Positions 5,674-37,510 are shown, counted from the stretch's first letter. The stretch is 59,997 nt of DNA from a virus (IMGVR_UViG_3300029535_000005:1-59997), one strand, 5' to 3'. Numbers and translations are program-made. Notes: generated from the letters alone by a model not told the origin.

Positions 5674-5701
5674 TAATTTTTTGGAACTTGAAGGAGATAT
5701 T

Positions 5702-6403
5702 ATGGCAAGTAAGCGGATGTTTCGTATAGATTTAGTGACGTCAGATGCTTTTCTTGACATGCCGCTCACAGCGCAGGGGTTGTTTTTTCATTTATGCATA
5801 CGGGCAGATGACGACGGTTTTGTTGACTGCGCCAATAAAACAGTAAGAGAGTGCCAGGCTTCAAAGGAAGACTTGCAAATTCTCATTGACAAACATTATG
5901 TTCTTACTTTTCCAGGATCTAATGTTATTGTCATAAAACATTGGAAATTACATAACTGCATTCAAAAAGACCGTTATAAGCCAACCAATTATGCAGAAGA
6001 AAAATCAATGCTTTATACGAAAAGAAATGGCGCATACACATTCGATGCTTCAAAAAATTTTTCTGGAGTGAATGCAATAAGGAGCGCAGGAAGCTCGCCG
6101 GGGAAAGAAGTGGAAGCGTGCATACCGTCATTGGCGGAAGTGGCTGATTATTGCCGTAAGAGGAAGAATGGTGTTAGCGCAGAATCATTTATTGATTACT
6201 ACAAATCAATAGGTTGGAAACGTAATGGAGAAATAATAACCGACTGGAAAGCCGCATTAAGGAGTTGGGAGAAGCAGGAAAAAGAGAGTAACCCAAGATC
6301 AAAAAACAAATTTAATAACTTTCATCAGAGATCTTATGACTATGATGAATTAGAAAAAACTTTGGTGGAGACAAATGTTAGGGAAGGGCGTGATAAGAAA
6401 TGA
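5702..6403 (+). CDS. Phage replisome organizer (N-terminal replisome-organizer domain plus a DnaD-like C-terminal region)
   Basis: MASKRMFRIDLVTSDAFLDMPLTAQGLFFHLCIRADDDGFV is typical of this family. ATG 5702 follows GAAGGAG. Confidence 0.75.
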   Translation: MASKRMFRIDLVTSDAFLDMPLTAQGLFFHLCIRADDDGFVDCANKTVRECQASKEDLQILIDKHYVLTFPGSNVIVIKHWKLHNCIQKDRYKPTNYAEEKSMLYTKRNGAYTFDASKNFSGVNAIRSAGSSPGKEVEACIPSLAEVADYCRKRKNGVSAESFIDYYKSIGWKRNGEIITDWKAALRSWEKQEKESNPRSKNKFNNFHQRSYDYDELEKTLVETNVREGRDKK

Positions 6404-11051: not shown

Positions 11052-13565
11052 ATGACATACAAAGAATTTTTAGAATCCAAGATTGAACTTGCAACAGAAA
11101 GCGGGTTCGTTGTGGATCCAGAAAAAGTAAATAAGGTATTAAAGCCACATCAGAGGGATGCGGTGGTGTGGGCACTGAAAGGCGGCAGGCGTGCATTGTT
11201 TGAGAGTTTCGGACTCGGAAAGACCGTGCAGGAGATTGAGTTTTGCCACTTAGCGGCGGAACACAGCGACGGCCGTGCGTTGATCGTGTTGCCGCTTGGA
11301 GTAAAGCAGGAGTTCACGCATGATGCGGTGGAAGTGCTTGGATATGGAAAGCCGGAGTATTGCCGGACAATGGAAGAAGTGGAGAAAAGCACAAGCCAGA
11401 TCGTATTGACGAATTATGAACGTGTCCGGGATGGAGATATCCGGCCAGACTACTTTACAGCAACATCACTCGATGAAGCCAGTGTTTTAAGGAGTTTTGG
11501 CAGCAAGACTTATCAGACATTCTTGGATAAATTCAAGAATGTTCCGTATAAGCTGGTAGCCACGGCAACACCATCGCCGAACAAATACAAAGAGCTGATC
11601 CATTACGCCGGATATCTGGAAGTGATGGATACAGGGCAGGCGTTGACACGGTTCTTCCAACGCGACAGCACAAAAGCGAACAATCTCACATTGTACCCAA
11701 ACATGGAAGATGAGTTTTGGATGTGGGTAAGCAGCTGGGCGCTTTTTATCACGAAACCTTCAGATCTCAATCCAGTATATTCCGATGCGGGATATGATCT
11801 ACCGCCACTTGATGTAAGATGGCATGAATTGCCGGTGCATTATGGCGATACAGCGGATAAGGACGGACAGATTCAGCTGTTTCAGGAAGCCGCCGAGGGA
11901 TTGAAAGAAGCCGCGGCAGTCAAGAGAGAAAGTATTGACCGCCGTGTAGCAGAAATGAAACGGATTGTGGAAGAATCGCCGGATGATCATTTCTTGTTAT
12001 GGCATGATCTGGAGAATGAACGGCATGCAATCAAGAAAGCACTGCCGGAAGTGGTGGATATCTACGGCTCGATGGACTATGACCTGCGTGAGCAGAGAGT
12101 AATTGATTTCTCGAATGGACGGACAAAGTTATTTGCCACAAAGAAATCATTATCCGGATCCGGATGTAATTTTCAGAGATATTGCCACCGCGAAATATTT
12201 CTTGGAATTGATTATGAGTTCAACGATTTTATTCAGGCGGTACACCGGTGTTATCGATTTTTACAGAAAGAACCGGTTGTGATCGACATTATCTACATGG
12301 AGAACGAGCGGCAGATCAAGGAAGCTTTGCTTGAAAAATGGAAGAATCACAATCACATGGTCGCGAAAATGATCGAGATTGTAAAAAAGTATGGTCTTAA
12401 TTCGGAGAATAAGGCGCAGCGGTTAGAAAGGAAGATGGGCGTGGAAGGTAGCAGAGAAGAAAGAACAGTAAGAGGAAACCATTATGAAGCGGTATATGGG
12501 GATTGTGTGGAGGAAACTCGAGCAATGGAAACGAACAGCATTGATCTGATACATACCTCGATTCCATTCGGCAACCATTACGAGTACAGCGCAAATTATA
12601 ACGATTTCGGACACAACCAGAACACGGACCGGTTCTTTGAACAGATGGACTTCCTCACGCCGGAATTGCTCCGGGTGTTAAAACCGGGGCGTGTGGCTGC
12701 AATCCATGTCAAGGATCGTGTGCTTTTTGGAAATGCAACAGGAACCGGAATGCCAACCATTGAACCATTTCACGCGCTTTGCATTGCGCATTATATGAAG
12801 CATGGTTTCCAGTATTTCGGAATGATTACTGTCGTGACTGATGTGGTCCGTGAGAATAACCAGACGTACCGGTTAGGGTGGACGGAGCAGTGCAAGGACG
12901 GATCCAAGATGGGCGTAGGATGCCCGGAATATATTCTGCTGTTCCGGAAACTGCCGACCGACAGATCCACTGCATACGCGGATGAACCGGTCAAGAAATC
13001 CAAAGAGGGTTACACGCGTGCGCAGTGGCAGATTGATGCGCATGGATACTGGAGATCCTCCGGCAATCGGTTAATCAGTAAAGAAGAATTGAAAGAGTTC
13101 CCGGTGGACAGCTTACAGCAGGTGTACAGGGAGTACAGCCGCGGCAGCGTATACAACTATGGGGATCATGTGAAACTTGCGGAAGATCTGGACAAGGACG
13201 GGAAACTACCGGCAACATTTATGGTCGTTGCTCCGGGATCGTGGAACCAGTTGGAAGTGTGGGACGACATCAACCGGATGCGAACCCTTAACACTACGCA
13301 GAGCCGCAGACGTGCCCAGATGCACGTATGCCCGTTACAGTTGGATATCGTGGAGAGAATCATCAACAGATATAGCAATGAGGGCGATACGGTCTATGAT
13401 CCGTTTGGTGGACTTATGACAGTACCAATGACAGCGGTCAAGATGCATCGGAACGGCAAAGGATGCGAACTGAATCAGGATTACTTCCGGGATGGCGTTG
13501 GATATCTGCAGGCTGCGGAGAATGAAGTGGACGAGCCGACATTGTTTGATTTTATGAAAGAATAG
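11052..13565 (+). CDS. SNF2/DEAD-like helicase domain fused to a DNA methyltransferase (N6-A or N4-C, beta-type motif order)
   Basis: Helicase motif I FGLGKT and motif II LDEAS. Methyltransferase motif IV-like TSIPF precedes motif I DPFGGLMT. Confidence 0.85.
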   Translation: MTYKEFLESKIELATESGFVVDPEKVNKVLKPHQRDAVVWALKGGRRALFESFGLGKTVQEIEFCHLAAEHSDGRALIVLPLGVKQEFTHDAVEVLGYGKPEYCRTMEEVEKSTSQIVLTNYERVRDGDIRPDYFTATSLDEASVLRSFGSKTYQTFLDKFKNVPYKLVATATPSPNKYKELIHYAGYLEVMDTGQALTRFFQRDSTKANNLTLYPNMEDEFWMWVSSWALFITKPSDLNPVYSDAGYDLPPLDVRWHELPVHYGDTADKDGQIQLFQEAAEGLKEAAAVKRESIDRRVAEMKRIVEESPDDHFLLWHDLENERHAIKKALPEVVDIYGSMDYDLREQRVIDFSNGRTKLFATKKSLSGSGCNFQRYCHREIFLGIDYEFNDFIQAVHRCYRFLQKEPVVIDIIYMENERQIKEALLEKWKNHNHMVAKMIEIVKKYGLNSENKAQRLERKMGVEGSREERTVRGNHYEAVYGDCVEETRAMETNSIDLIHTSIPFGNHYEYSANYNDFGHNQNTDRFFEQMDFLTPELLRVLKPGRVAAIHVKDRVLFGNATGTGMPTIEPFHALCIAHYMKHGFQYFGMITVVTDVVRENNQTYRLGWTEQCKDGSKMGVGCPEYILLFRKLPTDRSTAYADEPVKKSKEGYTRAQWQIDAHGYWRSSGNRLISKEELKEFPVDSLQQVYREYSRGSVYNYGDHVKLAEDLDKDGKLPATFMVVAPGSWNQLEVWDDINRMRTLNTTQSRRRAQMHVCPLQLDIVERIINRYSNEGDTVYDPFGGLMTVPMTAVKMHRNGKGCELNQDYFRDGVGYLQAAENEVDEPTLFDFMKE

Positions 13566-14585: not shown

Positions 14586-14810
14586 ATGAAGTTTTCAAAA
14601 CTGACTAAGCCAGAGCTTGAAGTAATTATTGAAAACGCCAATTTTACGGAGCAGGAAGAGGAAATATTTTCTCTTCTTGCCCGTGGATTTATACCAAAAG
14701 AAATATCAATGAAAATTTGTATTCCGCTAAGAACAGTAGAAAGGCGTATCTTTGATATAAAGCAAAAAGTCAAGAGATTGGAAGGTGATTTAAACGGAAA
14801 ATCTTTCTAA
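14586..14810 (+). CDS. Small sigma-70 region-4/LuxR-type HTH protein directly upstream of the integrase
   Basis: EEEIFSLLARGFIPKEISMKICIPLRTVERRIFDIKQKV. Confidence 0.65.
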   Translation: MKFSKLTKPELEVIIENANFTEQEEEIFSLLARGFIPKEISMKICIPLRTVERRIFDIKQKVKRLEGDLNGKSF

Positions 14811-14817
14811 GAGTGAA

Positions 14818-16020
14818 TTGTTGAATTTTGCCATTGAAAATGGTATTATCGACATAGACACCATTCAGAAAAAAATTGAGATGAACGAAAGGAAGAAATT
14901 TATTGAAAAACACAATTATAGCATTTGGGAAGGAAAAGACGGTAAGTTTTACACATATTTGCCCGATGAAGAAAGCCAGAGAGGGAAAAAACTTGTAAAA
15001 AGAACATCTGAAAAGGCGATAGAAGACGAGATAGTGAAGTTTTATAAAGCCATGGAAGATGAACCGACAATCAGCCAAGTATATTCTAGCTGGATTTCTG
15101 AAAAATTGGAATATGGTGAAATAACAAGGCAGACAAAAGACAAGTACGAGACAAATTTTAAAAGATTTTTTGAAAATAAGTATTTGCCGATTGCAAATAG
15201 AAAAATCCGGTATATTGACGAAGAAATATTGGAATCATTCATAAAAACAGCTATTTCAAAGCTGGAACTTACGCAGAAAGCGTACTCCGATATGCGGATA
15301 TTGATTAACGGAATTTTCAAATATGCAAAGAAAAAACATTATACCAGCTTAAGCATAACCAGTTTCATGGGTGATTTGGAAATTTCGGAAAAGTCATTTA
15401 AAAGGAATCATAAGTCTGACAACGAATTAGTTTTTTCTAAGGATGAAGAGCTTTTGATTGAACAATTCATAATGGAAAACCAGCCTACATTGATTGAACT
15501 TGGAATTATTTTGGCATTTAAAACCGGACTAAGGGTTGGAGAAATATCCACGCTTTCATGGTCAGATATTGAAGAAAATAAGATACATATATCAAAGACA
15601 GAAATACGATACCGAGATGATGGTGGCAAATATGTGTTTGATGTTCAGAATTTTCCAAAGAGCGATGCCGGATTTAGAGATGTTATAATTACCGAAGATA
15701 CCAATGAACTTATGAGAAAAATAAAAATGCTTAACCCTTTTGGAGAATATATTTTTATGAAAAACGGTAAAAGGATAAAAGGACAAGCATTTACAAGACG
15801 TTTATATGTGATATGCGATAAGGTGGGAATTGGTGAGCGATCGATTCATAAGGCGAGAAAGACATATGCTACAAAGCTTATAGATGGAAATGTTCCAGAA
15901 TCTGTAATAAAAACGCAAATGGGTCATACTGATATTAGAACAACGCTTGACCATTATTATTTTAATAATAAAACAGAGAGTGAGATGCAAGAATACATTG
16001 CGAAAGCACTATCGATGTAA
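14818..16020 (+). CDS. int: Tyrosine recombinase (phage integrase)
   Basis: GLRVGEISTLSWSDI, HKARKTYATKLI and MGHTDIRTTLDHYY give the R..HxxR..Y catalytic pattern. TTG start; the N-terminal boundary is uncertain. Confidence 0.9.
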   Translation: MLNFAIENGIIDIDTIQKKIEMNERKKFIEKHNYSIWEGKDGKFYTYLPDEESQRGKKLVKRTSEKAIEDEIVKFYKAMEDEPTISQVYSSWISEKLEYGEITRQTKDKYETNFKRFFENKYLPIANRKIRYIDEEILESFIKTAISKLELTQKAYSDMRILINGIFKYAKKKHYTSLSITSFMGDLEISEKSFKRNHKSDNELVFSKDEELLIEQFIMENQPTLIELGIILAFKTGLRVGEISTLSWSDIEENKIHISKTEIRYRDDGGKYVFDVQNFPKSDAGFRDVIITEDTNELMRKIKMLNPFGEYIFMKNGKRIKGQAFTRRLYVICDKVGIGERSIHKARKTYATKLIDGNVPESVIKTQMGHTDIRTTLDHYYFNNKTESEMQEYIAKALSM

Positions 16021-16022
16021 AA

Positions 16023-16228
16023 GGTAACACGAGGTAACACCTTTAGGTGTAAAGAAACCTAGTATTTATGCGGGTTTGCGGGGTTTGATACCGAGTTCAA
16101 ATCTCCCTTCCGCTACTATTTTTTTAAAATTGAAAACCTTGTGAAGCCTTGATTTTACTGGAAGAAAGGAGATTCTGAATGGTGTCTTTTCTGAAAGTAA
16201 AAATCAAAGGTAACACCAAAGGTAACAC
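16023..16228 (+). mobile_element. Candidate attP. Two pairs of GGTAACAC arm-type repeats flank a tRNA-3'-end-like core.
   Basis: GGTAACAC occurs at 16023, 16033, 16209 and 16221. The core GAGTTCAAATCTCCCTTCCGCTA (16093-16115) resembles T-loop, T-stem, acceptor 3' strand and discriminator. It lies immediately downstream of int. Confidence 0.5.
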
Positions 16229-16240
16229 GAACAAATGTAT

Positions 16241-16264
16241 GGACGCTTGATGCGTTCTTTTTTA
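16241..16264 (+). terminator. Intrinsic terminator
   Basis: GGACGC-TTGAT-GCGTTC followed by TTTTTTATT. Confidence 0.6.
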
Positions 16265-16306: not shown

Positions 16307-16341
16307 AGACGGTATTCTGGCGGTTTTACCGTCTTTTTTTA
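16307..16341 (+). terminator. Intrinsic terminator
   Basis: AGACGGTA ... TACCGTCT followed by TTTTTTT. Confidence 0.7.
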
Positions 16342-16493
16342 TGCCACAATATAAGCAAAGGGAGGGATGATAATGTTTTCTGACGATGTTCTTGAGAAAA
16401 TTTTTGCCAGAAAAGAATTGCAATCATTAGATTTGTCAACGCAGTCATCTATCATTCACGCAATCGAGGATGTTTTAGAGGAGGTTGAAGAAA

Positions 16494-17021
16494 ATGAACA
16501 TGAACGGAGTTTATCCGGCACCGGGCTATAGTCAGCAAATTCCTTATCAGGCATCATATGGGTATAATCCATATGGTAATCAGCAAAGAATTGAACAGCC
16601 GCAAAATTATTTTCAACCGGCGCAAACACAGCAAATTCAGCAGCCACAAATGACGCCTATTGGAATAAATGGAAAAATTGTGCCTTCTGTTGAAAATATT
16701 ACTGCAAACGATGTGCCGATGGATGGAAGCGTGGCGTTTTTCCCAAAGCAGGATATGACAGAAATATATGCTAAAAGTTGGAATGCAGATGGTACAATCC
16801 GCACAATCGTTTTTAATCCGGTTTTAAATGATATGACTAACAATTTATCGCATGAGCCGGGAAAAATGAAATTTGACCTATCAGACGAGTGCACAGGGGC
16901 ATTTATGGGAAAGTTTGATGAACTGTTTGGGAAAATTGAACAGTTAGAGGAACGTATCGGTAAAATTCCGGTTCCACAGAAAAAAACTTCTCAAATTAAA
17001 AAGGAGAGTGAATCCGAATGA
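16494..17021 (+). CDS. Hypothetical protein with a Gln/Pro/Tyr-rich N-terminus
   Basis: ATG lies 9 nt after GAGGAGG. Sequence MNMNGVYPAPGYSQQIPYQASYGYNPYGNQQRIEQPQNYFQPAQTQQIQQPQ... followed by a globular part. Confidence 0.6.
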   Translation: MNMNGVYPAPGYSQQIPYQASYGYNPYGNQQRIEQPQNYFQPAQTQQIQQPQMTPIGINGKIVPSVENITANDVPMDGSVAFFPKQDMTEIYAKSWNADGTIRTIVFNPVLNDMTNNLSHEPGKMKFDLSDECTGAFMGKFDELFGKIEQLEERIGKIPVPQKKTSQIKKESESE

Positions 17022-17218
17022 ATCCGATGCAAATGATTTTGAATCAAATGATAAATTCTCCGCAGATACAAAACAATCCAATGGCTAAAAATGCCATGCA
17101 GATGTATCAAAGCGGAGATACGGTCGGACTTAAGACAATGGCGGAGAATCTCTGCAAAGAAAGAGGAATTACAGTAGATGAAGCAAAGCAAAAGGTTATG
17201 AGTATGTTTAATCATTAG
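17018..17218 (+). CDS. Hypothetical small protein (Met/Gln/Asn-rich)
   Basis: 66 aa, overlapping the upstream stop (ATGA). Confidence 0.55.
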   Translation: MNPMQMILNQMINSPQIQNNPMAKNAMQMYQSGDTVGLKTMAENLCKERGITVDEAKQKVMSMFNH

Positions 17219-17287
17219 TACATTTTGGGTTGCGCGCATAATAACCGGTTATCCCATTTGTAAATAAATCAGATGGAGGTAAACAAA

Positions 17288-18079
17288 ATGTTTAATGGAA
17301 ACGCATCTCCTAGTCTTGCTGATATTGCAGCAGTGACAGGAAACGGAAGAAACAATGATGGCATGTGGGGCGGCGATGGCTGGTGGGCTATCATTATCTT
17401 CGCTATGATTTTTGGCTGGGGCGGCTTTGGCGGCAATGGCTGGGGAGGAAACGGAGGCATGGGAGCGACAGCATCTGCATACACCGACTCTGCAATTCAG
17501 CGTGGATTTGACACGCAGGCTATCATCGGGAAGTTAGATGGTATCACAAGTGGTCTATGTGATGGATTTTACGCACAGAATACCGCCGTTATGAACGGTT
17601 TCCATGGTGTAGACAATGCAATCTGCAACCTTGGATATCAGACGCAGCAGGGATTTAATACCACAAACGTAACACTTATGCAGGCACAGAATGCTTTGCA
17701 GTCCCAGATGGCTAATTGCTGCTGTGAGACCAGAGAAGCTATCCAGGGCGTGAACTACAATATGGCTCAGAACACCTGTGCACTGCAGAACACCATGAAC
17801 AGCAACACAAGAGACATTATTGACAGCCAGCAGGCAGGAACAAGGGCAATCCTTGATTACCTGTGTCAGGAAAAGATCTCTTCCTTACAGGCAGAAAATA
17901 ATGACTTAAGAATAGCTGCTTCACAGGATCGCCAGTCTGCATTGCTTACAACAGCAATGAGTGCACAGACACAGCAGATTATCAATGCCGTTAATCCGGC
18001 AGCTATCCCGGCTTACGTTGTTCCAAATCCAAACGCTTATGCTTACGGATGCGGATGCAACACAAGTTGCGGATGTTAA
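17288..18079 (+). CDS. Hypothetical membrane-associated protein: Gly/Trp-rich hydrophobic N-terminus, Gln/Asn-rich middle, Cys-rich C-terminus
   Basis: GGAGGT lies 7 nt upstream of the ATG. Motifs DGWWAIIIFAMIFGWGGFGGNGWGGNGG ... MANCCCETRE ... YAYGCGCNTSCGC. Confidence 0.65.
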   Translation: MFNGNASPSLADIAAVTGNGRNNDGMWGGDGWWAIIIFAMIFGWGGFGGNGWGGNGGMGATASAYTDSAIQRGFDTQAIIGKLDGITSGLCDGFYAQNTAVMNGFHGVDNAICNLGYQTQQGFNTTNVTLMQAQNALQSQMANCCCETREAIQGVNYNMAQNTCALQNTMNSNTRDIIDSQQAGTRAILDYLCQEKISSLQAENNDLRIAASQDRQSALLTTAMSAQTQQIINAVNPAAIPAYVVPNPNAYAYGCGCNTSCGC

Positions 18080-18134
18080 AGGCACTAAATTACAGACAGA
18101 TAACTAAAATTTAATATAAAATAACTTAATCAAT

Positions 18135-18182
18135 TTGAGTTCTTTTTGAGTTCCTTTTGAGTTCCTCTTGATTTGAACTCAA
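18135..18182 (+). promoter_or_regulatory. Phased repeat cluster: TTGAGTTC three times at 11-bp spacing, plus one inverted copy
   Basis: TTGAGTTC occurs at 18135, 18146 and 18157. GAACTCAA occurs at 18175-18182. Confidence 0.7.
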
Positions 18183-18234
18183 AACACACTCGAAAGAATG
18201 TGATTATGTCTGCTTTGCAGAATTATGAACACAA

Positions 18235-18261
18235 GGGCAGGCTATAAGACCTGCCCTTTTT
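18235..18261 (+). terminator. Intrinsic terminator or attenuator just upstream of the next RBS
   Basis: GGGCAGG-CTATAAGA-CCTGCCC followed by TTTTT. Confidence 0.7.
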
Positions 18262-18281
18262 ATGATTGGAGGTAAAACATT

Positions 18282-18704
18282 ATGGCAGAATTTACAGGAA
18301 TTGCAATTCAAACTGTCGCGCAGGGAGAAGATGTGGCATTTACAGAAACTCCGGTATGCGCAACAAAATGCATTGTTCATAGACAGGGAAGTGGCATTGT
18401 TAAATTAAGAGGACTTACAAATCAGTGCCGGGCAAGATTTTTAGTATCTTATTCCGGAAACATTCAAATTCCTACCGGTGGCACAGTTGAAGCTATTTCA
18501 CTGTCTATTGCAATTGACGGAGAACCGTTGCAGTCAACTCGAATGATTGTTACACCGGCGGCAGTTGAAAACTTCTTTAACGTTTCGGCGCAGGCATATG
18601 TGGACGTTCCTCGCGGTTGCTGTGTTACGGTAGCGGTACAGAATACGTCTACGCAGGCAATCGAAGTTCAGAACAGCAATTTAATTGCAGTCCGGGAAGC
18701 GTAA
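18282..18704 (+). CDS. Hypothetical beta-rich protein, possibly a C1q/TNF-like jelly-roll as in the BclA C-terminal domain
   Basis: 140 aa with RBS GGAGGT. The alternating beta pattern ...FLVSYSGNIQIPTGG...ISLSIAIDGEPL...CCVTVAVQNTS...IEVQNSNLIAVREA suggests this fold. The fold call is inference only. Confidence 0.6.
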   Translation: MAEFTGIAIQTVAQGEDVAFTETPVCATKCIVHRQGSGIVKLRGLTNQCRARFLVSYSGNIQIPTGGTVEAISLSIAIDGEPLQSTRMIVTPAAVENFFNVSAQAYVDVPRGCCVTVAVQNTSTQAIEVQNSNLIAVREA

Positions 18705-18717
18705 GGAGGGCGGTTTT

Positions 18718-19365
18718 ATGGATATTATGAGAATGCACGACATGATTGAAAAACTGTCTGAAAGCGCAGAGTGTGAGTTTGCAAAAGGTATCGAATGTGT
18801 AGATACAGAAGAGATGGGAAAAGTCACGGACATGCTTAAAGACCTTGCGGAAGCTATGTATTATCGGACACTTACAAAATCAATGGACGAATCAGACCCA
18901 GAGCAGGTTCTTGATATGTTTGAGCGTTACGGAGATGGCAGACGGTATTATGACCGTTACCGGTATGCAGACGGCAGATTTGCGCCAAAGGGAAGAGGAA
19001 CGCGGAGAGGATATGACGAGCCGCCTTACTGGCACATGACACCGGAAATGTATCACGATATGGAGCATGACCGCGACATTGATCGACCACATGGGCGAAT
19101 GTATTACACAGAGCCTACAATTGCGGCAGATGGCGGTATGCGTGACCGCAGAGAGGGTAAAAGCGGAATGAGCCGCAGAAGCTACATGGAAAGCAAAGAG
19201 CTTCACAAAGGCAATACGCCGGAGGATAAGGACGCAAAGATGCATGACCTTGAAAAATACATGAAAGAGCTTTCGGAGGATATGGCGGAACTTATCTCCG
19301 ACATGACGCCGGAAGAGCGCACAATGACAAAAAGCAAGCTTTCGACGCTTGTTTCCAAAATGTAA
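18718..19365 (+). CDS. Hypothetical highly charged protein (Arg/Asp/Tyr/Met-rich)
   Basis: ATG follows AAGGAGGG; 215 aa. Confidence 0.65.
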   Translation: MDIMRMHDMIEKLSESAECEFAKGIECVDTEEMGKVTDMLKDLAEAMYYRTLTKSMDESDPEQVLDMFERYGDGRRYYDRYRYADGRFAPKGRGTRRGYDEPPYWHMTPEMYHDMEHDRDIDRPHGRMYYTEPTIAADGGMRDRREGKSGMSRRSYMESKELHKGNTPEDKDAKMHDLEKYMKELSEDMAELISDMTPEERTMTKSKLSTLVSKM

Positions 19366-19367
19366 TG

Positions 19368-19396
19368 ACAGGGGCAGAAATGCCCCTGTTTGTTTG
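19368..19396 (+). terminator. Intrinsic terminator closing the cargo block
   Basis: ACAGGGGCA-GAAA-TGCCCCTGT followed by TTGTTTG. Confidence 0.75.
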
Positions 19397-19493: not shown

Positions 19494-19546
19494 TTGACAA
19501 TTATTGCAAGGGCATATATTATAAAAACATAAATATTGCAAGGGCA
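19494..19546 (+). promoter_or_regulatory. Sigma-A-type promoter with two ATTGCAAGGGCA direct repeats
   Basis: TTGACA (19494-19499), 17 nt spacer, TATTAT (19517-19522). Repeats at 19503-19514 and 19535-19546. Confidence 0.55.
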
Positions 19547-20845: not shown

Positions 20846-21166
20846 ATGTTTTTAATAAATGGTATTGAATGGAAAATAAAATTTGTTCACGGCGCAAGTA
20901 ATAAATTGATGCGCTCTGATGGCTCTACCAGCCTTGCTGTGACCGATTGGAACGACAGGTCTATATATGTTTCAGATAAACCGAAAAATGGTTATTTGCG
21001 CAAAATACTGGCTCATGAGCTTTGCCATTGCTTTTGTTTTTCCTATAACATTCATATGCCGATTGAGCAGGAAGAGTATCTTGCGGACTGGATAAGCCTG
21101 TATGGGGAAGATTTGATTTATTTGCTGGATGATTTGATGTCAAACATTGATTGGAGGGCGGCATAG
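20846..21166 (+). CDS. HExxH zinc-metallopeptidase-like protein (ImmA/IrrE M78-like or SprT-like)
   Basis: LRKILAHELCHCFCFSY motif; 106 aa. Confidence 0.55.
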   Translation: MFLINGIEWKIKFVHGASNKLMRSDGSTSLAVTDWNDRSIYVSDKPKNGYLRKILAHELCHCFCFSYNIHMPIEQEEYLADWISLYGEDLIYLLDDLMSNIDWRAA

Positions 21167-26044: not shown

Positions 26045-26055
26045 ATTGTTTGCAT

Positions 26056-26127
26056 TGCTCGTTTGCCAAATGGTAAGGCACTGGGTTTTGATCCCAGCAT
26101 TTATCGGTTCGAGTCCGGTACGGGCAG
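26056..26127 (+). tRNA. tRNA-Gln (anticodon TTG)
   Basis: Hand-folded cloverleaf: TGCTCGT/ACGGGCA acceptor, GCC..GGC D-stem, CTGGG-TTTTGAT-CCCAG anticodon arm, ATCGG-TTCGAGT-CCGGT T-arm, discriminator G. No encoded CCA. Confidence 0.85.
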
Positions 26128-26148
26128 TTTTGAAAATGGAGGTAAATC

Positions 26149-26307
26149 ATGTTGATTTTAAAAACAGTCATAACAACATTTGATGCCCTTGCGATTTTGA
26201 CGTTTTTCTTGCTTGGAAGAGATGGCAGCAACGAAAAGGACGCTGTGGCAGTCTGGGGATCACTTATTGCATTGTTTCTTATCAATATATTTGCAATGTG
26301 GAGATGA
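26149..26307 (+). CDS. Small two-TM membrane protein (52 aa)
   Basis: GGAGGT RBS 6 nt upstream of the ATG, with hydrophobic segments. Confidence 0.5.
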   Translation: MLILKTVITTFDALAILTFFLLGRDGSNEKDAVAVWGSLIALFLINIFAMWR

Positions 26308-26605
26308 TGATATGGTTTTGTATGACCCGATATTTGGTATTCGCTTCCTGCCGGAAATTTTAACTACGGTCGGAAGAATACATATAAGCAGAAAAAAACA
26401 TACGGGAGAAACCGACGTTCTGGATCTTGACAGTGACGCTGAGCACCAGTCTGAGAAGTCGGAGCATCCAGTATAGCTTAAGTCCACTGGCATTCGGTTT
26501 TTGCAAGAAAAAACTCGGCGTAAGCAATTATTCGGTGTTAGTGGACGTCGGCAAAATAAAAAGATCAAAAATACTATCATAAACGGCGCGCTATGCGCGC
26601 TGTGA

Positions 26606-26694
26606 CGGAACGTAGTTCAGAGGAAAGAACAATCTTTTTATTCTTCCATGCTCTAGTGAATTGATAGCCGCAGGTTCAAGTCCTGCCGTTCCGA
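26606..26694 (+). ncRNA. Non-canonical tRNA-like element. Acceptor, D-arm and T-arm are present, but there is no foldable anticodon arm.
   Basis: CGGAACG/CGTTCCG acceptor, GTTC-AGAGGAAA-GAAC D-arm, GCAGG-TTCAAGT-CCTGC T-arm. The 39-nt middle segment does not form a 5-bp stem with a 7-nt loop. Confidence 0.4.
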
Positions 26695-27351
26695 TTGAGA
26701 AATAGGTTTAAAGCTTATCTCGGAATACGAAAAGTTCGTATTTCTCCTTTCGCTACTAGGAAGTTTCTGTTAAGGACGGTGCGAGACCGTCCGGTGGCGT
26801 TTGCCGCGGAGTGCGGCAAGGCGGAAGACCGCTTGGTGTTGGATAATGGTTGTCCCGTAATTTGCTGACGAGCAATACAGGCGGATTCCTATTGATAGTT
26901 CGGGTGCCTATCCCACGGTGCCTGAGCTGTCAAAAATACAATTAGGCTGTGGCGGAAAAAGGTAGACGCTTAAGCATAAGACAACCACGCTTTGGTTAGG
27001 AACAAGTCATTGAATTAACAAGGCAATGAAGGAACCTGTTAAGGGTGTTACCCGTTGTGGAAAGTCGTTGTTATGTGAGGTGCAAATCCTCACCAGCCTA
27101 TTTCCCGTGATATCGCACAGGATAGTGCAACGCATGGCACGAAAAATATGATTGCTAACCGTCTGATGGCGGTTCTCGTGGATGGCAAGAAAGGTATTTG
27201 CCGGAGTAAGACGCTTCGTGAAACTGATAGTCGAAAGGTTTCAAGTGCAAGGTTCAAGTCCTTGCTCCACGATGGTGCCGAGCTGATTTGATACTGTATG
27301 CGTAGCGCGCGGTCGCGTACAGAGATATGGAGTGAGGTGTCCGCGCATTTT
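26695..27351 (+). ncRNA. Candidate large structured ncRNA region containing two further tRNA-like modules (26944-27099 and 27176-27272)
   Basis: No credible ORF on either strand. Many GC-rich hairpins: GGACGG/CCGTCC 26774-26791, TTGCCGC/GCGGCAA 26801-26819, TTGCT-GACG-AGCAA 26862-26875, CTGTATGCG/CGCGTACAG 27293-27321. T-arm-like GTGAGG-TGCAAAT-CCTCAC and GCAAGG-TTCAAGT-CCTTGC. Confidence 0.45.
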
Positions 27352-27441
27352 GGGGAAGCGGCAACGATTGGAGGTGTTGCGGCTGACTGTAAATCAGTTC
27401 CCAAGTGGTAAACAATAGAGGTTCGATTCCTCTCTTCCCTA
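27352..27441 (+). tRNA. tRNA-Tyr (anticodon GTA), class II with a long variable arm
   Basis: GGGGAAG/CTTCCCT acceptor, GCTGA-CTGTAAA-TCAGT anticodon arm, AGAGG-TTCGATT-CCTCT T-arm, discriminator A. Confidence 0.75.
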
Positions 27442-27531
27442 TTTCACTCAACTCCCTAAAAACACTGTTTGGCAGGTGCGTGGTAGACAGTTGTAATGGA
27501 TGGGTTGTTTAAGAAATCGCACCATCAAGAT

Positions 27532-27616
27532 GCAGTGTTCCCATAATGGAATTGGAGCCGGTTGCTATCCGGTCGGGCGTTTATTCGCCTTGTAGGTTCG
27601 AGTCCTACACACTGCG
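27532..27616 (+). tRNA. tRNA-Ser (anticodon GCT), class II
   Basis: GCAGTGT/ACACTGC acceptor, GCCGG-TTGCTAT-CCGGT anticodon arm, GGCG..CGCC variable stem, GTAGG-TTCGAGT-CCTAC T-arm, discriminator G. Confidence 0.75.
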
Positions 27617-27731
27617 CTAACTTACGACAGGGATGAACCTTGCCGTAAGCGGTAGAAAGTCCGTGTGAAATTGTACAAAGTGGTGGCAAAAGCAATTTCG
27701 GATATAGCAGTTCCACCACACTGCTATATTT

Positions 27732-27815
27732 GCCGTATGTCCGGGTGGTGAGGGGGGGCGGTCTTGAAAACCGTTGGCTGTAAAAGGCTTGCAGGTTCAA
27801 ATCCTGTGTACGGCG
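27732..27815 (+). tRNA. tRNA-Ser (anticodon TGA), class II
   Basis: GCCGTAT/GTACGGC acceptor, GCGGT-CTTGAAA-ACCGT anticodon arm, GCAGG-TTCAAAT-CCTGT T-arm, discriminator G. The D-arm pairing is weak. Confidence 0.65.
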
Positions 27816-27925
27816 TTTGATTGAAAAAAAATCGAGCGTTAATGTGTGACGGAAAATGAACCGGAAATGATAGAAGTAACAACTTTGGAAGATTGTGAAC
27901 CTAGGTTTATGAGGAAGTGATTGAA

Positions 27926-30496: not shown

Positions 30497-30529
30497 GCAC
30501 TTCTGCTTTTGCGGAGGTGCTTTTCTTTT
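30497..30529 (+). terminator. Strong terminator-type hairpin whose 3' arm contains the terL RBS
   Basis: GCACTTCTGC-TTTT-GCGGAGGTGC followed by TTTTCTTTT. The TTG start of terL (30528) lies in the U-tract. Confidence 0.7.
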
Positions 30530-32261
30530 GGCAAGTTCAAGCCTAATTTCCACAGTAAATGGATATGAAAATTACATACAGGTGCATGGCGTTGATGAAC
30601 AGGTAATAGATGCCATGGAAGAAGCGGCAAGGGTAGCCATTCTGACGGAAAAGGATGTTGAGTATGGATTAAAGGTTTCTGCCAGAGCGAAAGAACTGAC
30701 GGAGCAGTTTATATTTCAATCTACAGGTGGCACACCATGGGATTTAGAGAAATATTCATTCCAAAACAAGGTATCTTATGAAATTCTGGACAAATACTAC
30801 GGAATTTTGCTTTTAGAAGCGCAAAACAAAGTTGTGGATAGTGCTTTCCAGTATTTGGAGAAGAAGAGAGAGCCTAAAGAGCGGTTTTACATGCCAAGAA
30901 AAAAGAAATTCTTAAAAATCGGACTCATAGATGCGCTGCAAGGCATGATTGATGATAGATATGACATCCTGTGCGTATCACTTGTCCCGGGTGCAGGAAA
31001 AACAACGGTTGAAAAAATGTTTCACGCTCTTGTTGCCGGATGGTTTCCGAGAGATTTCAGCCTCTTTTATTCACACAGCGGTGATATTACCAGAATGTAC
31101 TATGACGGTGTGTACGATATCGTTACAAATACGGAAGAATATACATGGAATGAAATTTTCCCGGATCTTTCAGTGACAAGCACAAATGCAAAGATGGAGC
31201 AGTTTAATGTCGGGAAGTACAAATCGTTTCAATCCGTACAATGTACGTCTGTTGGTAGTAAGAATGCCGGTAAGGTTCGTGCGTCTAAGTTTCTTCTGGT
31301 AGATGATATGATTGGCGGCATTGAAGAAGCTATGAATCCGGCAATACTTGATAAATTGTGGGATAAATACGCTGTAGATGCCCGCCAGAGAAAGATACAG
31401 GACACCGACGGTAAGAACTGCAAGGAAATACATATAGCCACCAGATGGAGCGTACACGACGTTATAGGGCGCATACAGAATATGTATGAGGGAAACCCGC
31501 GGGTAAAGGTAATAGCTGTGCCGGATGTAGATCCAAAAACCGGAGAGAGCAATTTTGATTATGAATTTTCTGGGTTTACGAAAGAATTTTTTGAGGATCA
31601 GCAATTGTTGATGGATGATATTTCGTATCGTTGCCTTTACAAGCAGGAACCAATCGAACGTGAAGGGCTTTTATTCCCGGAAGATAAAATTCGCCGTTAT
31701 CTTAATTTGCCGCACGGAGAGCCGGAGATTGTTACGGGACAATGCGATACAAAGGGAAAAGGAACAGACTATTTTGTATTGCCGGTATTACAGAAATACG
31801 GAGAAGATTACTATTGCATTGATTGTGTTTGTGACAATACGGCTGATTATGAGATGCAATATGAGAATGCAGCAAATGTGTTGGCAAACAACAAAGTGCA
31901 GGAATGTGAATTTGAGAGAAACGCCGGCGGAGACCGTGTCGCAATGGAAGTAAACAAGCGTGTCGAAAAAAAAGGATGGATATGTAACATTACTGACACA
32001 CCGACGGAGACAAACAAGGAAGCAAGGATTTTCCAGTGTTCAAACTGGATATTGCAGCACGTTATATTTAAAGACCCGTCATTATATAAGCCAAATGAGC
32101 CATATGGAGTAATGATGTCTCTTATCAAGAGATATTCAGTGTCCGGTAAAAAGCAGTTGGATGATGTGCCGGATGTATTTTCAAACTTTGCGCTTAGAGT
32201 GACAAATGGAAATAATGTAGCCAAAGTAGAAGCAGCAGTAAATCCGTTTAGGAGGTATTGA
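30528..32261 (+). CDS. terL: Terminase large subunit
   Basis: Walker A LVPGAGKTT, Walker B FLLVDDM, and a C-terminal nuclease-like region. The N-terminal boundary is uncertain (TTG 30528, or a downstream GTG or ATG). Confidence 0.9.
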   Translation: MASSSLISTVNGYENYIQVHGVDEQVIDAMEEAARVAILTEKDVEYGLKVSARAKELTEQFIFQSTGGTPWDLEKYSFQNKVSYEILDKYYGILLLEAQNKVVDSAFQYLEKKREPKERFYMPRKKKFLKIGLIDALQGMIDDRYDILCVSLVPGAGKTTVEKMFHALVAGWFPRDFSLFYSHSGDITRMYYDGVYDIVTNTEEYTWNEIFPDLSVTSTNAKMEQFNVGKYKSFQSVQCTSVGSKNAGKVRASKFLLVDDMIGGIEEAMNPAILDKLWDKYAVDARQRKIQDTDGKNCKEIHIATRWSVHDVIGRIQNMYEGNPRVKVIAVPDVDPKTGESNFDYEFSGFTKEFFEDQQLLMDDISYRCLYKQEPIEREGLLFPEDKIRRYLNLPHGEPEIVTGQCDTKGKGTDYFVLPVLQKYGEDYYCIDCVCDNTADYEMQYENAANVLANNKVQECEFERNAGGDRVAMEVNKRVEKKGWICNITDTPTETNKEARIFQCSNWILQHVIFKDPSLYKPNEPYGVMMSLIKRYSVSGKKQLDDVPDVFSNFALRVTNGNNVAKVEAAVNPFRRY

Positions 32262-33037: not shown

Positions 33038-34444
33038 ATGAATAATAAATCTCTCCAAGATCTTGTTAAAGGCTGTTATGGGCGAAAAATTTTATATACT
33101 GATGTTGAAACCATCACAGCAGAAAATATTGTCAAGGTGGTTGGAGACTGCATCGGAAATTATTATTACAACAAAACCATCATAGAATACCTATGGCGGT
33201 ATTACAAAGGAGATCAGCCGATTTTATACCGATTAAAGGTACAAAATGCTGATATTACAAACAAAATAGTAGAAAATCATGCGTATGAGATTGTTCAGTT
33301 CAAAGTAGGTCAGACATACGGTGAACCAATCCAGTTTATTAGTCGAAAAGATGACGATGTGATCAATAAGGCAGTGGATGAGCTGAATGACTATCTTGTA
33401 GACGCAAATAAGCAGGAAAAGGACATTAAAGCTGGTGAATGGCAGTCAGCAACCGGAACATCTTTCAAGGCGGTGAGATTTGCAAATGGAGATATACCAT
33501 TTCAGATTGTTGCCCCTACTCCGATGAATACTTGTGTTATTTATAATCGGAGCACGGAAGAACCGGTTCTTGCAGTACAAGAACTTAAGGACGAGGATGG
33601 AAGATGGTACAAACTGTGCTATACAGACAGTCATTCGTGCAAAATTCAAAATGGAGTAGCTTCTGAATGGAAATTGCATGCGTTTGGAAGCATTCCTATT
33701 GTTGAGTTCCCAAACAATCACGAAAGAATATCAGACATTGAGCTTGTCATAGGTCTTCTGGATGCCATCAACAACATGCAGTCAAACAGAATGGATGGAA
33801 TTGAGCAGTTTGTTCAGTATTGGGTAAAATTTGTAAACTGTGAGATTGACCAAAAAACGTTTGAAGAGATGAAAATGAGCCATGCTTTGACTGTAAAGTC
33901 TAACAATAAGGATAACAAAGCCGATGTTGAAATCATGACGCAGGAACTTAACCAGAGTCAGTGTCAGGTGGCAAAGGATGATTTGATTGATAATTTACAA
34001 GCAATACTAGCAATACCAAACAGAGAGTCTCAAAACTCTGGAGGAGATACACAGGGTGCCGTATCCTTAAGAGCTGGGTGGGATTTCTCAAAGACTAGGG
34101 CAAAACAAAAAGACCCTATTATCAAGTCAGCAGAGAAAAGACTGGCAATAATAATATTAAATATTTTAAGGGTAACTGGAAATGACTTGAAAATATCCCC
34201 AAGAGACTTTGATGTTCAAATTAACCATAGCCCATTAGATAACCTTTACACAAAAACACAGGCGCTTGCACAAATGCTGCAATCTGGAATAAATCCAAGA
34301 ATAGCAGTTGAAACTTGTGGATTATGGGGAGATGCCGAAAAGGTATCTTTACAATCACAGCCATATTTTGATGCTTTATATAAAACAATAGATATGGTAA
34401 ATGAAGAAAAGAAAAATATAAAAAATCAAGAGCCGACAGTTTAG
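33038..34444 (+). CDS. Portal protein (SPP1 Gp6-like)
   Basis: 468 aa. The position after terL and motifs such as YYKGDQPIL fit the family. Confidence 0.9.
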   Translation: MNNKSLQDLVKGCYGRKILYTDVETITAENIVKVVGDCIGNYYYNKTIIEYLWRYYKGDQPILYRLKVQNADITNKIVENHAYEIVQFKVGQTYGEPIQFISRKDDDVINKAVDELNDYLVDANKQEKDIKAGEWQSATGTSFKAVRFANGDIPFQIVAPTPMNTCVIYNRSTEEPVLAVQELKDEDGRWYKLCYTDSHSCKIQNGVASEWKLHAFGSIPIVEFPNNHERISDIELVIGLLDAINNMQSNRMDGIEQFVQYWVKFVNCEIDQKTFEEMKMSHALTVKSNNKDNKADVEIMTQELNQSQCQVAKDDLIDNLQAILAIPNRESQNSGGDTQGAVSLRAGWDFSKTRAKQKDPIIKSAEKRLAIIILNILRVTGNDLKISPRDFDVQINHSPLDNLYTKTQALAQMLQSGINPRIAVETCGLWGDAEKVSLQSQPYFDALYKTIDMVNEEKKNIKNQEPTV

Positions 34445-36415: not shown

Positions 36416-37510
36416 ATGGCATTACCATTAGCAGAAGCATTTACCGCAAGAAGCCTTGGGGTTATGTGGAATAATTATGAAAAAACGCTTGGTTCTGCGC
36501 CTTACTTAGGTAGACAGAAATTTGGAACCAGAAAACAGGACAGCCTTGAGCTTAGATTTATCAAAGGGAAAAACGGTCTTCCAGTATCCTTAAAGGCATC
36601 CAATTTTGATGCGCAGGCAGAGTTAAGAGACGTTGGTGGATTTTCGGACATTCAGAACGAGATGCCTTTCTACCGTGAATCTTACATGGTAACAGAGCGT
36701 GAAGAGCAGGAGTATGCAAATTACCAGTCGGCAGAAAATTCCAACATGGCAAACCAGGTGCTTAGAGAAATCAGCAAAAAACCGATGATGCTTATTGAGG
36801 GGGCAAGAGTGGTGCCGGAACGCCAGATTTGGCAGTTATTAGCACCATCTGATGGTATTCCAAGAGTACAGGTAACAATTGGCGGAAAGAGCTACTATGT
36901 GGATTATACTTCGGACAATGGAGTGGCGCACAAGAGAGATCATTACAAGGATATATCCGGAAGCGATACCGATAAATGGTCTGCATCCGAAACAGCAACG
37001 CCACTTGATGACCTTATCGAGATTAAACGTGAGTTTGCAAAGAAAACCGGATATTCCCTTGCACGCTTTAGCATGAATACAGAAACATGGGAAATGGTCC
37101 TTAAAGCGGAAGATACAAAGAAACAGGTGCTTGGAATTACTGCTTACAATGGCGGCATTCGCTTACAGCAGGGGCAGGTTACAGAGTATCTTAGAGGATA
37201 CGGCATCGAGATTGAAGTTTACGACAAACTTTACATCGACCCTGCAGACGGTGCCACCAAATATTTTATTCCTACAGGAGTTATTTCAGCGCAGGCATCC
37301 GGCGTGTACCTTGGAGATTATGTCTTTGGAAAGACACCGGAAGAGAGAAGCGGAAGTTTGACAGACGGAAACCTTTCTATTGTAGAAACAGGTATTTCGG
37401 TATATACATACGCAACAAATCATCCGATCAACACTCATTGCGTTGTGTCAATGATCGGATTGCCTACTTTTGAGGGAATGGACAGCGTTGTTGTCATGAA
37501 AGTTGCGTAG
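36416..37510 (+). CDS. Major capsid protein (protein E-like family)
   Basis: 364 aa. The position and the N-terminal pattern ...WNNYEKTLGSAPYLGRQKFGTRKQDSLELRFIKG fit. Confidence 0.85.
   Translation: MALPLAEAFTARSLGVMWNNYEKTLGSAPYLGRQKFGTRKQDSLELRFIKGKNGLPVSLKASNFDAQAELRDVGGFSDIQNEMPFYRESYMVTEREEQEYANYQSAENSNMANQVLREISKKPMMLIEGARVVPERQIWQLLAPSDGIPRVQVTIGGKSYYVDYTSDNGVAHKRDHYKDISGSDTDKWSASETATPLDDLIEIKREFAKKTGYSLARFSMNTETWEMVLKAEDTKKQVLGITAYNGGIRLQQGQVTEYLRGYGIEIEVYDKLYIDPADGATKYFIPTGVISAQASGVYLGDYVFGKTPEERSGSLTDGNLSIVETGISVYTYATNHPINTHCVVSMIGLPTFEGMDSVVVMKVA

Follow-up and report, generated by a model that had tools for sequence, protein, structure and literature searches.

A fixed-order gene module with a predicted exosporium-type knob protein and a three-hairpin RNA beside the attachment site of phages from gut Clostridia

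Accessory cassettes at prophage ends, knobs with a C1q/TNF fold and terminator leader RNAs are all known kinds of element. The cassettes include morons (lom and bor of phage lambda, or the toxin genes past the lysis module of streptococcal and staphylococcal phages) and the superinfection exclusion (Sie) genes Sie2009 and Ltp, and the knobs include the trimeric Bacillus proteins ExsFA/BxpB and F-BclA, from the exosporium and endospore appendages, and the C-terminal domain of BclA (BclA-C). In endospore appendages (ENAs), disulfide coupling through CC motifs joins the ENA subunits and the C1q-domain tip fibrilla (PMC12357932). Here, we analyze a block of six co-oriented genes (A-F; 16373-19365, + strand) in a viral DNA stretch of 59,997 nucleotides (nt) (IMGVR_UViG_3300029535_000005:1-59997), hereafter the window, a siphophage-like temperate genome of ~60 kb in which almost every gene lies on the + strand. 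The block lies beside the phage attachment site (attP), encodes a predicted knob of the exosporium type and carries a structured RNA ahead of the knob gene. It belongs to a module that recurs in a fixed gene order in prophages of Clostridia, and neither this module nor its RNA element is described in the libraries and literature that we searched.

An earlier note on this stretch, made from the sequence alone, described five tightly packed open reading frames (ORFs) as a terminator-bounded cargo block of low-complexity, Cys-rich proteins. The block is indeed tight and co-oriented and is bounded by terminators, and the compositions and motifs quoted for its proteins are all present; it comprises six genes, however, as the short gene A had not been listed. 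Gene A (16373-16531) encodes an acidic protein of 52 amino acids (aa). Gene B (16494-17021; 175 aa) combines a Q/P/Y-rich N-terminus with a conserved central domain and a C-terminal helix, and gene C (17018-17218; 66 aa) is rich in M (15%), N (12%) and Q (11%). Genes D (17288-18079; 263 aa) and E (18282-18704; 140 aa) are discussed below, and gene F (18718-19365; 215 aa) encodes a highly charged protein, rich in R/Y/D/M and E, with helical ends. All six lie on the + strand, each is preceded by a GGAGG-type ribosome-binding site, and the successive spacings are -38, -4, 69, 202 and 13 nt (negative values denote overlaps). Public gene calls on an identical contig agree with these sizes.

As the earlier note had supposed, no protein of the block matches a known virion or lysis family in Pfam, PHROG or NCBIfam. 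In Pfam, B, C and D of the window have no match, and A, E and F only have matches at noise level (E-value 0.01 or worse). None of the six window proteins is matched in NCBIfam, and a PADLOC scan of them returned nothing above noise. Partner proteins from related loci likewise gave no significant match in Pfam, NCBIfam or PADLOC. The PHROG matches are to families of unknown function, i.e., phrog_21718 for B (1.6e-11) and phrog_16490 for D (1.6e-57), with a further match for E (2e-68). For F, there is no match in PHROG, NCBIfam or PADLOC, and Pfam gives E-values of 0.09 or worse (SpoIVA_middle, at 0.088, is not significant). No signal peptide was found in A-F, judged by sequence reading and hydropathy, and the sole hydrophobic segment, a borderline one, is in D.

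Homologues of D (~8000), E (~8000) and F (~3800) are found in gut metagenomes, in metagenome-assembled genomes (MAGs) of Caudoviricetes and in MAGs of Lachnospira and Ruminococcus. All are named hypothetical, with the exception of one D homologue labelled 'glycoprotein', and one variant of F occurs on at least 1000 contigs, one of them 2.75 Mb in size. A locus search with a shallow E alignment retrieved near-identical viral contigs only. A scan for E over one genome per species yielded 163 places. The hosts of the 80 best are almost all Clostridia, including Lachnospiraceae, Oscillospiraceae, Acutalibacteraceae, Ruminococcus, Eubacterium, Hungatella, Agathobacter, Subdoligranulum and Butyricicoccus, and the few odd host bins are probably mis-binned. 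The closest E among these 80 is encoded in Lachnospira intestinalis (94% identity), a species whose strain CLA-AA-H89B harbours L090, which is closely related to the window phage.

When the ORFs of 90 loci (numbered with the prefix L) were searched iteratively with profiles, 77 of the loci were found to contain B, 83 D, 89 E and 82 F. The order of these genes is always B-(C)-D-E-F, with B always upstream of D and F directly past E. Genes A and C are detected in the closer lineages only: A in 14 of the 90 loci (71% identity in L004 and 46% in L001) and C with 73% and 52% identity in the same two loci. Most other loci have ~250 bp without an assigned gene between B and D. The fixed order spans ~80 species-level prophages of Clostridia, plus thousands of metagenomic contigs, which places the module among the most widespread uncharacterised gene sets of human and animal gut phages. 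The label of cargo, as used in the earlier note, thus gives way to that of a fixed-order module. Like morons, the block is adjacent to the attachment site, has terminators and a putative promoter, and is exchanged among phages with unrelated structural modules. Unlike morons, which are sporadic inserts of one or two genes, it is a fixed module of six to nine genes with its own regulator that extends across host families, and ordinary morons themselves insert inside it, between D and E.

Three further genes accompany the block. In other lineages, the usual first gene of the module encodes a helix-turn-helix (HTH) regulator of the LuxR/sigma-region-4 type, which is also present in the window (14586-14810, + strand; 74 aa; Pfam GerE/LuxR at 2e-4, below the family cut-off). 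With jackhmmer, most of 55 loci (~50) yield a + strand homologue located 50-700 nt ahead of the module, a count to be read with the promiscuity of this domain in mind, as a few matches are spurious (e.g., a sigG fragment in L004 and L090). The regulator is separated from the module by a tyrosine integrase and attP in the window and in L104, and by a serine recombinase in L001 and L005-L009. The usual last gene elsewhere encodes an HExxH protein, which directly follows F (-7 to +88 nt) in ~20 loci. Its counterpart in the window (20846-21166, + strand; 106 aa; HELCH motif; phrog_1233 at 1.3e-12 and a weak metalloprotease match, phrog_87) is shifted by ~1.5 kb by inserted regulatory genes. Finally, a protein of ~125 aa, Z, precedes B in 55 loci and is absent from the window (examples are L112 5941-6333, L003 6707-7084 and L174 19785-20165). 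Its invariant Asp-Cys, His and Asp residues look like a papain- or NlpC-type catalytic triad; no relative of Z was found in Pfam, nor in the PDB with a profile of the Z family. In one Oscillospiraceae-type prophage (L111), a RAGATH-31 RNA (5717-5771; 79.5 bits, above threshold) is located just before Z.

The module travels independently of the virion genes of its carriers. Between the phage MT835516 and the window, B, C, D, E and F share 37, 46, 67, 86 and 50% identity, respectively, and a whole-genome protein comparison finds only a stretch of the tape measure in common beyond B-F. In Dulem virus 33, D and E are 42% and 63% identical to those of the window. For both phages, the large terminase, portal and major capsid protein have no detectable similarity to those of the window. 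Dulem virus 39, in turn, shares a capsid protein (61%) and E (73%) with the window. Of the module's proteins, E is conserved best: its identity is 93% in L004 (79% for D) and 73% in Dulem virus 39 (34% for D). That the module is more conserved than the capsid genes of its carrier phages suggests that it interacts, in some important way, with a host-cell feature that is itself conserved.

The genes that precede the module differ between lineages. Oscillospiraceae-type prophages and Dulem virus 33 share an arrangement in which the structural genes are followed by endolysin, regulator, Z, B, C, D, E, F, a small gene, attP and an integrase on the opposite strand. A Phage_min_cap2 gene (SPP1 gp7-like) is found 2.5-3 kb before the module in mouse-gut Lachnospiraceae prophages (L096 1156-2433, L164 1864-3138 and L092 1484-2737), with no capsid gene after it.

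In every architecture examined, the module is the last element before the attachment site. In the window, attP (16022-16228) follows the integrase gene, and its core (16093-16116) equals the 3' end of a host tRNA-Met(CAT). The candidate attP put forward in the earlier note is confirmed by the lysogen contig L171, in which the same phage is integrated and whose sequence agrees fully with the window beginning at 16093. Ahead of the junction, L171 carries a host tRNA-Val and tRNA-Met(CAT), the 3' end of the latter corresponding to window position 16116. The sequence shared with the window begins at the last 24 nt of tRNA-Met, and gene A follows 257 nt past the tRNA. The window contains just four copies of the 9-mer AGGTAACAC, at 16022, 16032, 16208 and 16220 (chance expectation 0.23), two on either side of the core (spans 16022-16040 and 16208-16228); these repeats are probably arm-type binding sites of the integrase. 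The proposed place of the block at a prophage end is therefore seen directly in L171, and likewise in the relative L004, where a large serine recombinase replaces the tyrosine integrase and the block adjoins host genes. In L120, L143 and L169, tRNA or transfer-messenger RNA genes lie just past F. The serine-recombinase relatives L090 (5427-5915, - strand) and L004 (8398-8886, - strand) are integrated inside a sporulation sigma-factor gene of Lachnospira, which we take to be sigG-like from the Bacillus subtilis sequence. The C-terminal 162 aa of the split gene (IIGEIKRYLRDSNPIRVSRSLRD...GISQAQVSRLEK) are left beside the block.

The protein with the clearest structural relatives is E, for which the earlier note had suspected a C1q/TNF-like fold as in the C-terminal domain of BclA. 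AlphaFold, run on a shallow alignment, predicts an all-beta structure with a mean predicted local distance difference test score (pLDDT) of 81.7 and a predicted template modelling (TM) score of 0.77. The five best Foldseek matches in the PDB (TM 0.70-0.77; E-values 3.5e-7 to 1.9e-5) are proteins of the exosporium and of endospore appendages, namely the C-terminal domain of F-BclA (9h38; E-value 3.5e-7, TM 0.72-0.74), ExsFA (7r1m; TM 0.76), ExsF (9h3d; TM 0.77), BxpB (8d02; TM 0.74) and the C-terminal domain of BclA (1wck; TM 0.70). TNF-family ligands and phage fibre knobs rank below them. A Foldseek search against viral models is concordant, with small phage proteins labelled 'BclA protein' and giant-virus collagen-C1q proteins among the matches. 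Judged by its predicted structure, E is a standalone TNF/C1q-like jelly roll of the BclA-C/ExsF type.

At the sequence level, this kinship is faint. E shares only 9-16% identity with BclA-C and ExsF proteins, the window protein is unmatched by the Pfam family BclA_C (PF18573) at E-values up to 1, and matches to BclA_C among 38 diverse members of the E family are restricted to three below threshold (best E-value 1.8e-4). When PDB sequences were searched with a profile of the E family, BclA and ExsF chains were not among the matches, and PDB sequence searches with E, or with D, gave no meaningful match. The family comprises 660 clusters at 50% identity. As the 150 best representatives are ~70-200 aa long, there are no collagen fusions among them, and the BclA architecture of an exosporium leader followed by collagen-like GXX repeats is found neither in E nor in these representatives. 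E thus resembles the BclA-C/ExsFA-BxpB/F-BclA proteins in its predicted fold, in a size near that of standalone ExsFA/BxpB and in conserved Cys-Cys motifs, but lacks collagen-like repeats, a leader or an N-terminal extension. It is also encoded by phages (of Lachnospiraceae and Oscillospiraceae), outside any sporulation regulon, and its trimeric state and location are predicted by analogy.

Conserved Cys motifs are a hallmark of D as well. Besides a G/W-rich hydrophobic segment (residues 31-50), D of the window contains WWAIIIFAMIFGWGGFGGNGWGGNGG, a CCC motif, P-x-PAY and the C-terminal end YAYGCGCNTSCGC, with 11 Cys in total. Across 72 diverse members of the family, the G/W-rich hydrophobic segment, P-x-PAY and TRDIID..RAILD..ENQ.L..AASQ are conserved, and CCC is kept in 97%. 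The tail is rich in Gly, Asn, Tyr and Cys across the family, with 8-17 Cys per protein and one exception among the 72. In E, a GCC motif is invariant in close relatives and common family-wide. Of the likeness to spore-coat or exosporium proteins that the earlier note had drawn, the fold of E and these family-wide Cys motifs (CCC in D, GCC in E) hold, but sequence matches to a coat or exosporium family are absent. This also applies to the Cys-rich coat and exosporium proteins ExsY/CotY, CdeC/CdeM and CsxA, with which the window proteins share no sequence or profile similarity (Pfam, NCBIfam). Structure searches had been proposed for each ORF; they assign E an exosporium-type fold, whereas the model of D is too poor for a fold search. 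No lipobox or signal peptide is present in the sequence of D. A ribosomally synthesized and post-translationally modified peptide or bacteriocin, to which the Cys-rich tail of D and the Cys-His protein Z had drawn attention, was rejected, as no transporter or maturase genes are linked.

Between the stop codon of D and gene E lies an RNA element of 116 nt with three hairpins (18169-18284, + strand), in a spacer that is conserved even among very distant loci. Hairpin P1 has 8 bp, is preceded by CUU and enters an invariant AUG with its 3' arm. P2 has 5 bp and occurs in the variants UCGGC/GCCGA, UCAGC/GCUGA, UCCGC/GCGGA and CUGCU/AGCAG. Past a UAYUGACA linker, P3 is a GC-rich 10-bp terminator hairpin with a U-run, after which the ribosome-binding site and ATG of E follow. 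In the window, P3 spans 18233-18258 (-16.4 kcal/mol), just before E. It is thus a fourth hairpin, not mentioned in the earlier list of terminators, of which the three named are real.

RNAalifold recovers P2 and P3, with compensatory changes, from a plain MAFFT alignment. In a seed of 11 sequences, 98.8% is paired and 10 pairs are changed on both sides, a level reached in none of 500 shuffles. With a covariance model, ~57 of 85 sources give + strand matches, all of which begin no more than a few bases from the stop codon of D, and this place after D is kept even where a methyltransferase or another moron separates D and E. In an alignment of 48 sequences, which was fitted to the model and hence favours the structure, 96.4% of the cells are paired (42-59% in slid controls; 0 of 500 shuffles) and 21 of the 23 pairs show compensatory change; alignments made with MAFFT only agree. 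The copy in the window reaches a covariance-model score of 25.1 bits (E-value 0.0013) and folds into three hairpins at -31.9 kcal/mol (z -4.45), and other copies are found at L145 7885-8003, L169 7886-8003, L120 7882-8003 and ~50 more loci. That the element constitutes a new structured RNA is well supported by these comparisons. No Rfam family matches it at threshold. The nearest entry, Termite-leu (RF01730), was rejected as its identity, as it reaches 28.4 bits where 51 would be needed, and does so on the minus strand, with the best exemplar (L145) unmatched and none of nine loci reaching the threshold.

The element likely acts as a terminator-based transcription attenuator that limits or regulates E-F. 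Similar to terminator/antiterminator leader RNAs, it has two hairpins and then, immediately ahead of the next gene, a GC-rich terminator with a U-run. In folds of the nascent transcript, the P2 region of most sequences can pair instead with the 5' arm of P3. This candidate antiterminator is 82% paired, compared to 37-57% in slid controls and 79.9% in shuffles, with few compensatory changes. The element differs from described leaders in this weak covariation, and in that the nearest Rfam entry remains below threshold. A leader peptide starting at the invariant AUG was considered and seems unlikely: the purine-rich bases are as close as 1-4 nt to the AUG, and the peptide is not conserved because the compensatory changes in P2 alter its codons. 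Just before the element, three tandem copies of ~11 nt (18128-18182; GAGTTCTTTTT, GAGTTCCTTTT and GAGTTCCTCTT) precede TTGAACTCAAAA, a sequence able to pair with them. The D-E junction past the element is also an insertion hotspot. A C5 cytosine methyltransferase is inserted there in L096 (6825-7940), a gene that by eye resembles phosphoadenosine phosphosulfate (PAPS) reductases in L092 (7226-7939) and a 143-aa gene without an assignment in L164 (7499-7930). The insertion of morons after the RNA element marks the boundary of a transcription unit at this point.

The upstream and downstream borders of the block carry transcription signals of their own. Two terminator-like hairpins with T-runs precede gene A on the + strand (16241-16257, -8.4 kcal/mol; 16319-16333, -7.2 kcal/mol), the second of which is conserved, together with its T-run and with compensatory changes, in four aligned lineages. 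The closing terminator (19367-19390, + strand) is a 10-bp GC-rich hairpin (-18.7 kcal/mol, z -4.74), and the next operon has a near-consensus sigma-70-type promoter, TTGACA-17-TATTAT, matching at 11 of 12 positions (19494-19522). Between the second upstream hairpin with its T-run and the ribosome-binding site of A, which follows after ~7 nt, lies a promoter-like RTG-N-NAAAAT motif (16341-16352, + strand; here ATGCCACAAT) that recurs in 13 Lachnospiraceae-type loci. We infer that it is an extended -10 element for sigma-A, from which the transcript would retain the ribosome-binding site of A. A sigma-K or sigma-E promoter was judged a poorer fit in a comparison of consensus sequences; the fit to the sigma-K consensus CATA---TA is weaker because the first and third positions of the motif vary or mismatch. 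In Oscillospiraceae-type phages, the module has no separate upstream transcription signals.

Tentatively, and with more doubt than confidence, we read the block as the core of a horizontally moving, host-directed accessory operon that is expressed in the lysogen and whose products assemble inside the cell as a Cys-rich stalk with a knob. The full operon would consist of the HTH regulator, A, B, C, D, the RNA element, E, F and the HExxH protein, and would be exchanged among phages of gut Clostridia. As A-F lack signal peptides, their products are expected to act or assemble inside the cell. D would provide a hydrophobic anchor, a long helical stalk and a Cys-rich tail, E the BclA-C/ExsF-like trimeric knob carrying a CC motif, and B, C and F low-complexity partners. 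For genes A-D, transcription would start at a sigma-A-type extended -10 promoter belonging to the block, with the two terminators blocking read-through from the host tRNA operon, and E-F would be made only when the three-hairpin attenuator past D lets RNA polymerase through. With a putative sigma-A-like promoter and a host tRNA gene as neighbour, the simplest expectation is that the operon is expressed in the lysogen, and for A-D this would amount to lysogenic conversion in a broad sense. The assembly may end up on the spore surface in sporulating hosts, or on the cytoplasmic face of the membrane. That D and E would partner as stalk and knob is argued by analogy with ExsF/BclA and with CC-motif coupling in endospore appendages (PMC12357932), and the assembly may be cross-linked. 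A more specific version, in which a self-regulated operon builds a BclA/ENA-like, Cys-cross-linked stalk-and-knob on the host spore or envelope and switches the knob by means of a new riboswitch-like or protein-controlled attenuator RNA, seems to us improbable in its entirety. If a stalk-and-knob is indeed displayed at the surface, this would represent a new class of lysogenic conversion in abundant commensals. Should the spore or cell surface of Lachnospiraceae and Oscillospiraceae be changed, then the transmission, immune recognition and phage susceptibility of major commensals would be affected, and the RNA element past D offers a concrete way into studying the regulation.

Several observations weigh against this accessory operon of the lysogen. 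A fixed order and high conservation are atypical of lysogenic-conversion cargo. In Oscillospiraceae-type phages, where B starts a few bases from the stop codon of Z, the module looks like the tail of the late/lysis operon. Butyrivibrio virus Ceridwen, a phage of Butyrivibrio fibrisolvens, contains Z, B, D and E; as it has no integrase and only lytic growth has been observed, a role in lytic growth is plausible. The promoter before A is a putative one, called from a consensus match. The AlphaFold model of D (pLDDT 39.9) is unusable, with hints of a short hydrophobic helix and of long helices at 76-136 and 156-234; its input comprised 33 sequences of 79-97% identity, and the homologues among the matches listed were all above 76% identity. 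Likewise, the Kyte-Doolittle maximum of D (1.41 over 19 residues) is that of a borderline membrane helix, and the flanking charges leave its topology unfixed.

Three other roles were considered. One possibility is that the proteins belong to the spore coat, exosporium or appendages. A sporulating lysogen would produce them in its mother cell, and they would become cross-linked to the surface of the spore; the part of ExsF/BxpB or of BclA-C would fall to E, and that of a Cys-rich anchor or basal-layer protein to D. In favour of this, E finds its best structural matches among proteins of the exosporium and of endospore appendages, the CC/CCC motifs parallel the disulfide coupling of ENAs (PMC12357932), and the absent signal peptides agree with assembly in the cytoplasm of the mother cell. 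In addition, the hosts are Clostridia and close relatives are integrated in a sigG-like sporulation gene. We nonetheless consider such a role unlikely, as the upstream motif fits the sigma-K -10 consensus poorly, the window proteins have no sequence match to any coat or exosporium family in Pfam or NCBIfam, and E and its 150 listed relatives lack a collagen-like region or exosporium leader. The module is, moreover, coupled to the late/lysis operon in many phages and present in Ceridwen, for which lytic growth only is observed. Lachnospira, Agathobacter and Subdoligranulum, which all host such prophages, are not known to sporulate, which counts against a spore function too.

Alternatively, the module may encode an intracellular or membrane-associated system for host takeover, superinfection exclusion or defence, with D in the membrane and E, as a trimer with its partners, blocking incoming phage DNA or modifying a conserved host machine. 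Such a function would be useful to a lytic phage as well, and both the independence from virion genes and the very high conservation of E suggest a conserved host target. The interval between integrase and repressor is the classical site of Sie genes in Gram-positive temperate phages, and the window block, with its own terminators and putative promoter, lies between the integrase and a repressor-like gene. This position, and one protein with a hydrophobic segment (D, which would be single-pass), are shared with Sie2009 and Ltp; the block differs from these in having no lipoprotein signal or sequence similarity and many more genes, and in lying past the lysis genes in other lineages. Low-complexity, Cys-rich proteins in a module of six to nine genes are unlike known Sie systems, defence and Sie cargo usually varies between related phages whereas this module is fixed, PADLOC gives no family above noise, and D has neither lipobox nor signal peptide, so that we give this explanation a low probability. 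Very doubtful, finally, are virion-associated accessory proteins. In this case, E would be the knob of a fibre or decoration, and D would be a stalk or an ejection protein that penetrates the membrane. Phage and viral fibres often end in TNF/C1q-like knobs, and E also matches the fibres of cyanophages A4 and A-1(L), the phi812 spike and giant-virus collagen-C1q proteins; the missing signal peptides, the late-operon linkage in many phages and the presence in Ceridwen agree with such a role. A virion component, however, is expected to follow one head or tail type, which the module does not, and for this reason the reading was judged unlikely after the whole-genome protein comparison: phages whose E is 63-86% identical share no detectable similarity in terminase, portal or major capsid protein. 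The module is always located past the lysis genes or beside attP, never within the head and tail modules, and in the window it lies ~11 kb upstream of the terminase gene, with its own terminators and putative promoter. E is also far more conserved than is usual for receptor-binding domains.

The window as a whole is organized in the order replication genes, integrase, block, regulatory genes with five tRNAs, packaging, head and tail genes, and a SbcC-like gene at the right end. The recombination/replication region includes RecT-like (1485-2600), DnaD-like (5681-6403) and helicase/methyltransferase (11052-13565) genes, and is followed by the tyrosine integrase gene (14818-16020, + strand; Pfam Phage_integrase at 2e-17 and phrog_1 at 1.9e-38). 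The structural region contains the large terminase (30528-32261), portal (33038-34444), major capsid protein (36416-37510) and tape measure (42948-46880) genes, as well as tail-fibre genes. The five tRNA genes (26055-27816) are those for Gln-TTG, Lys-CTT, Tyr-GTA, Ser-GCT and Ser-TGA, several of which are unusually long (86-92 nt).

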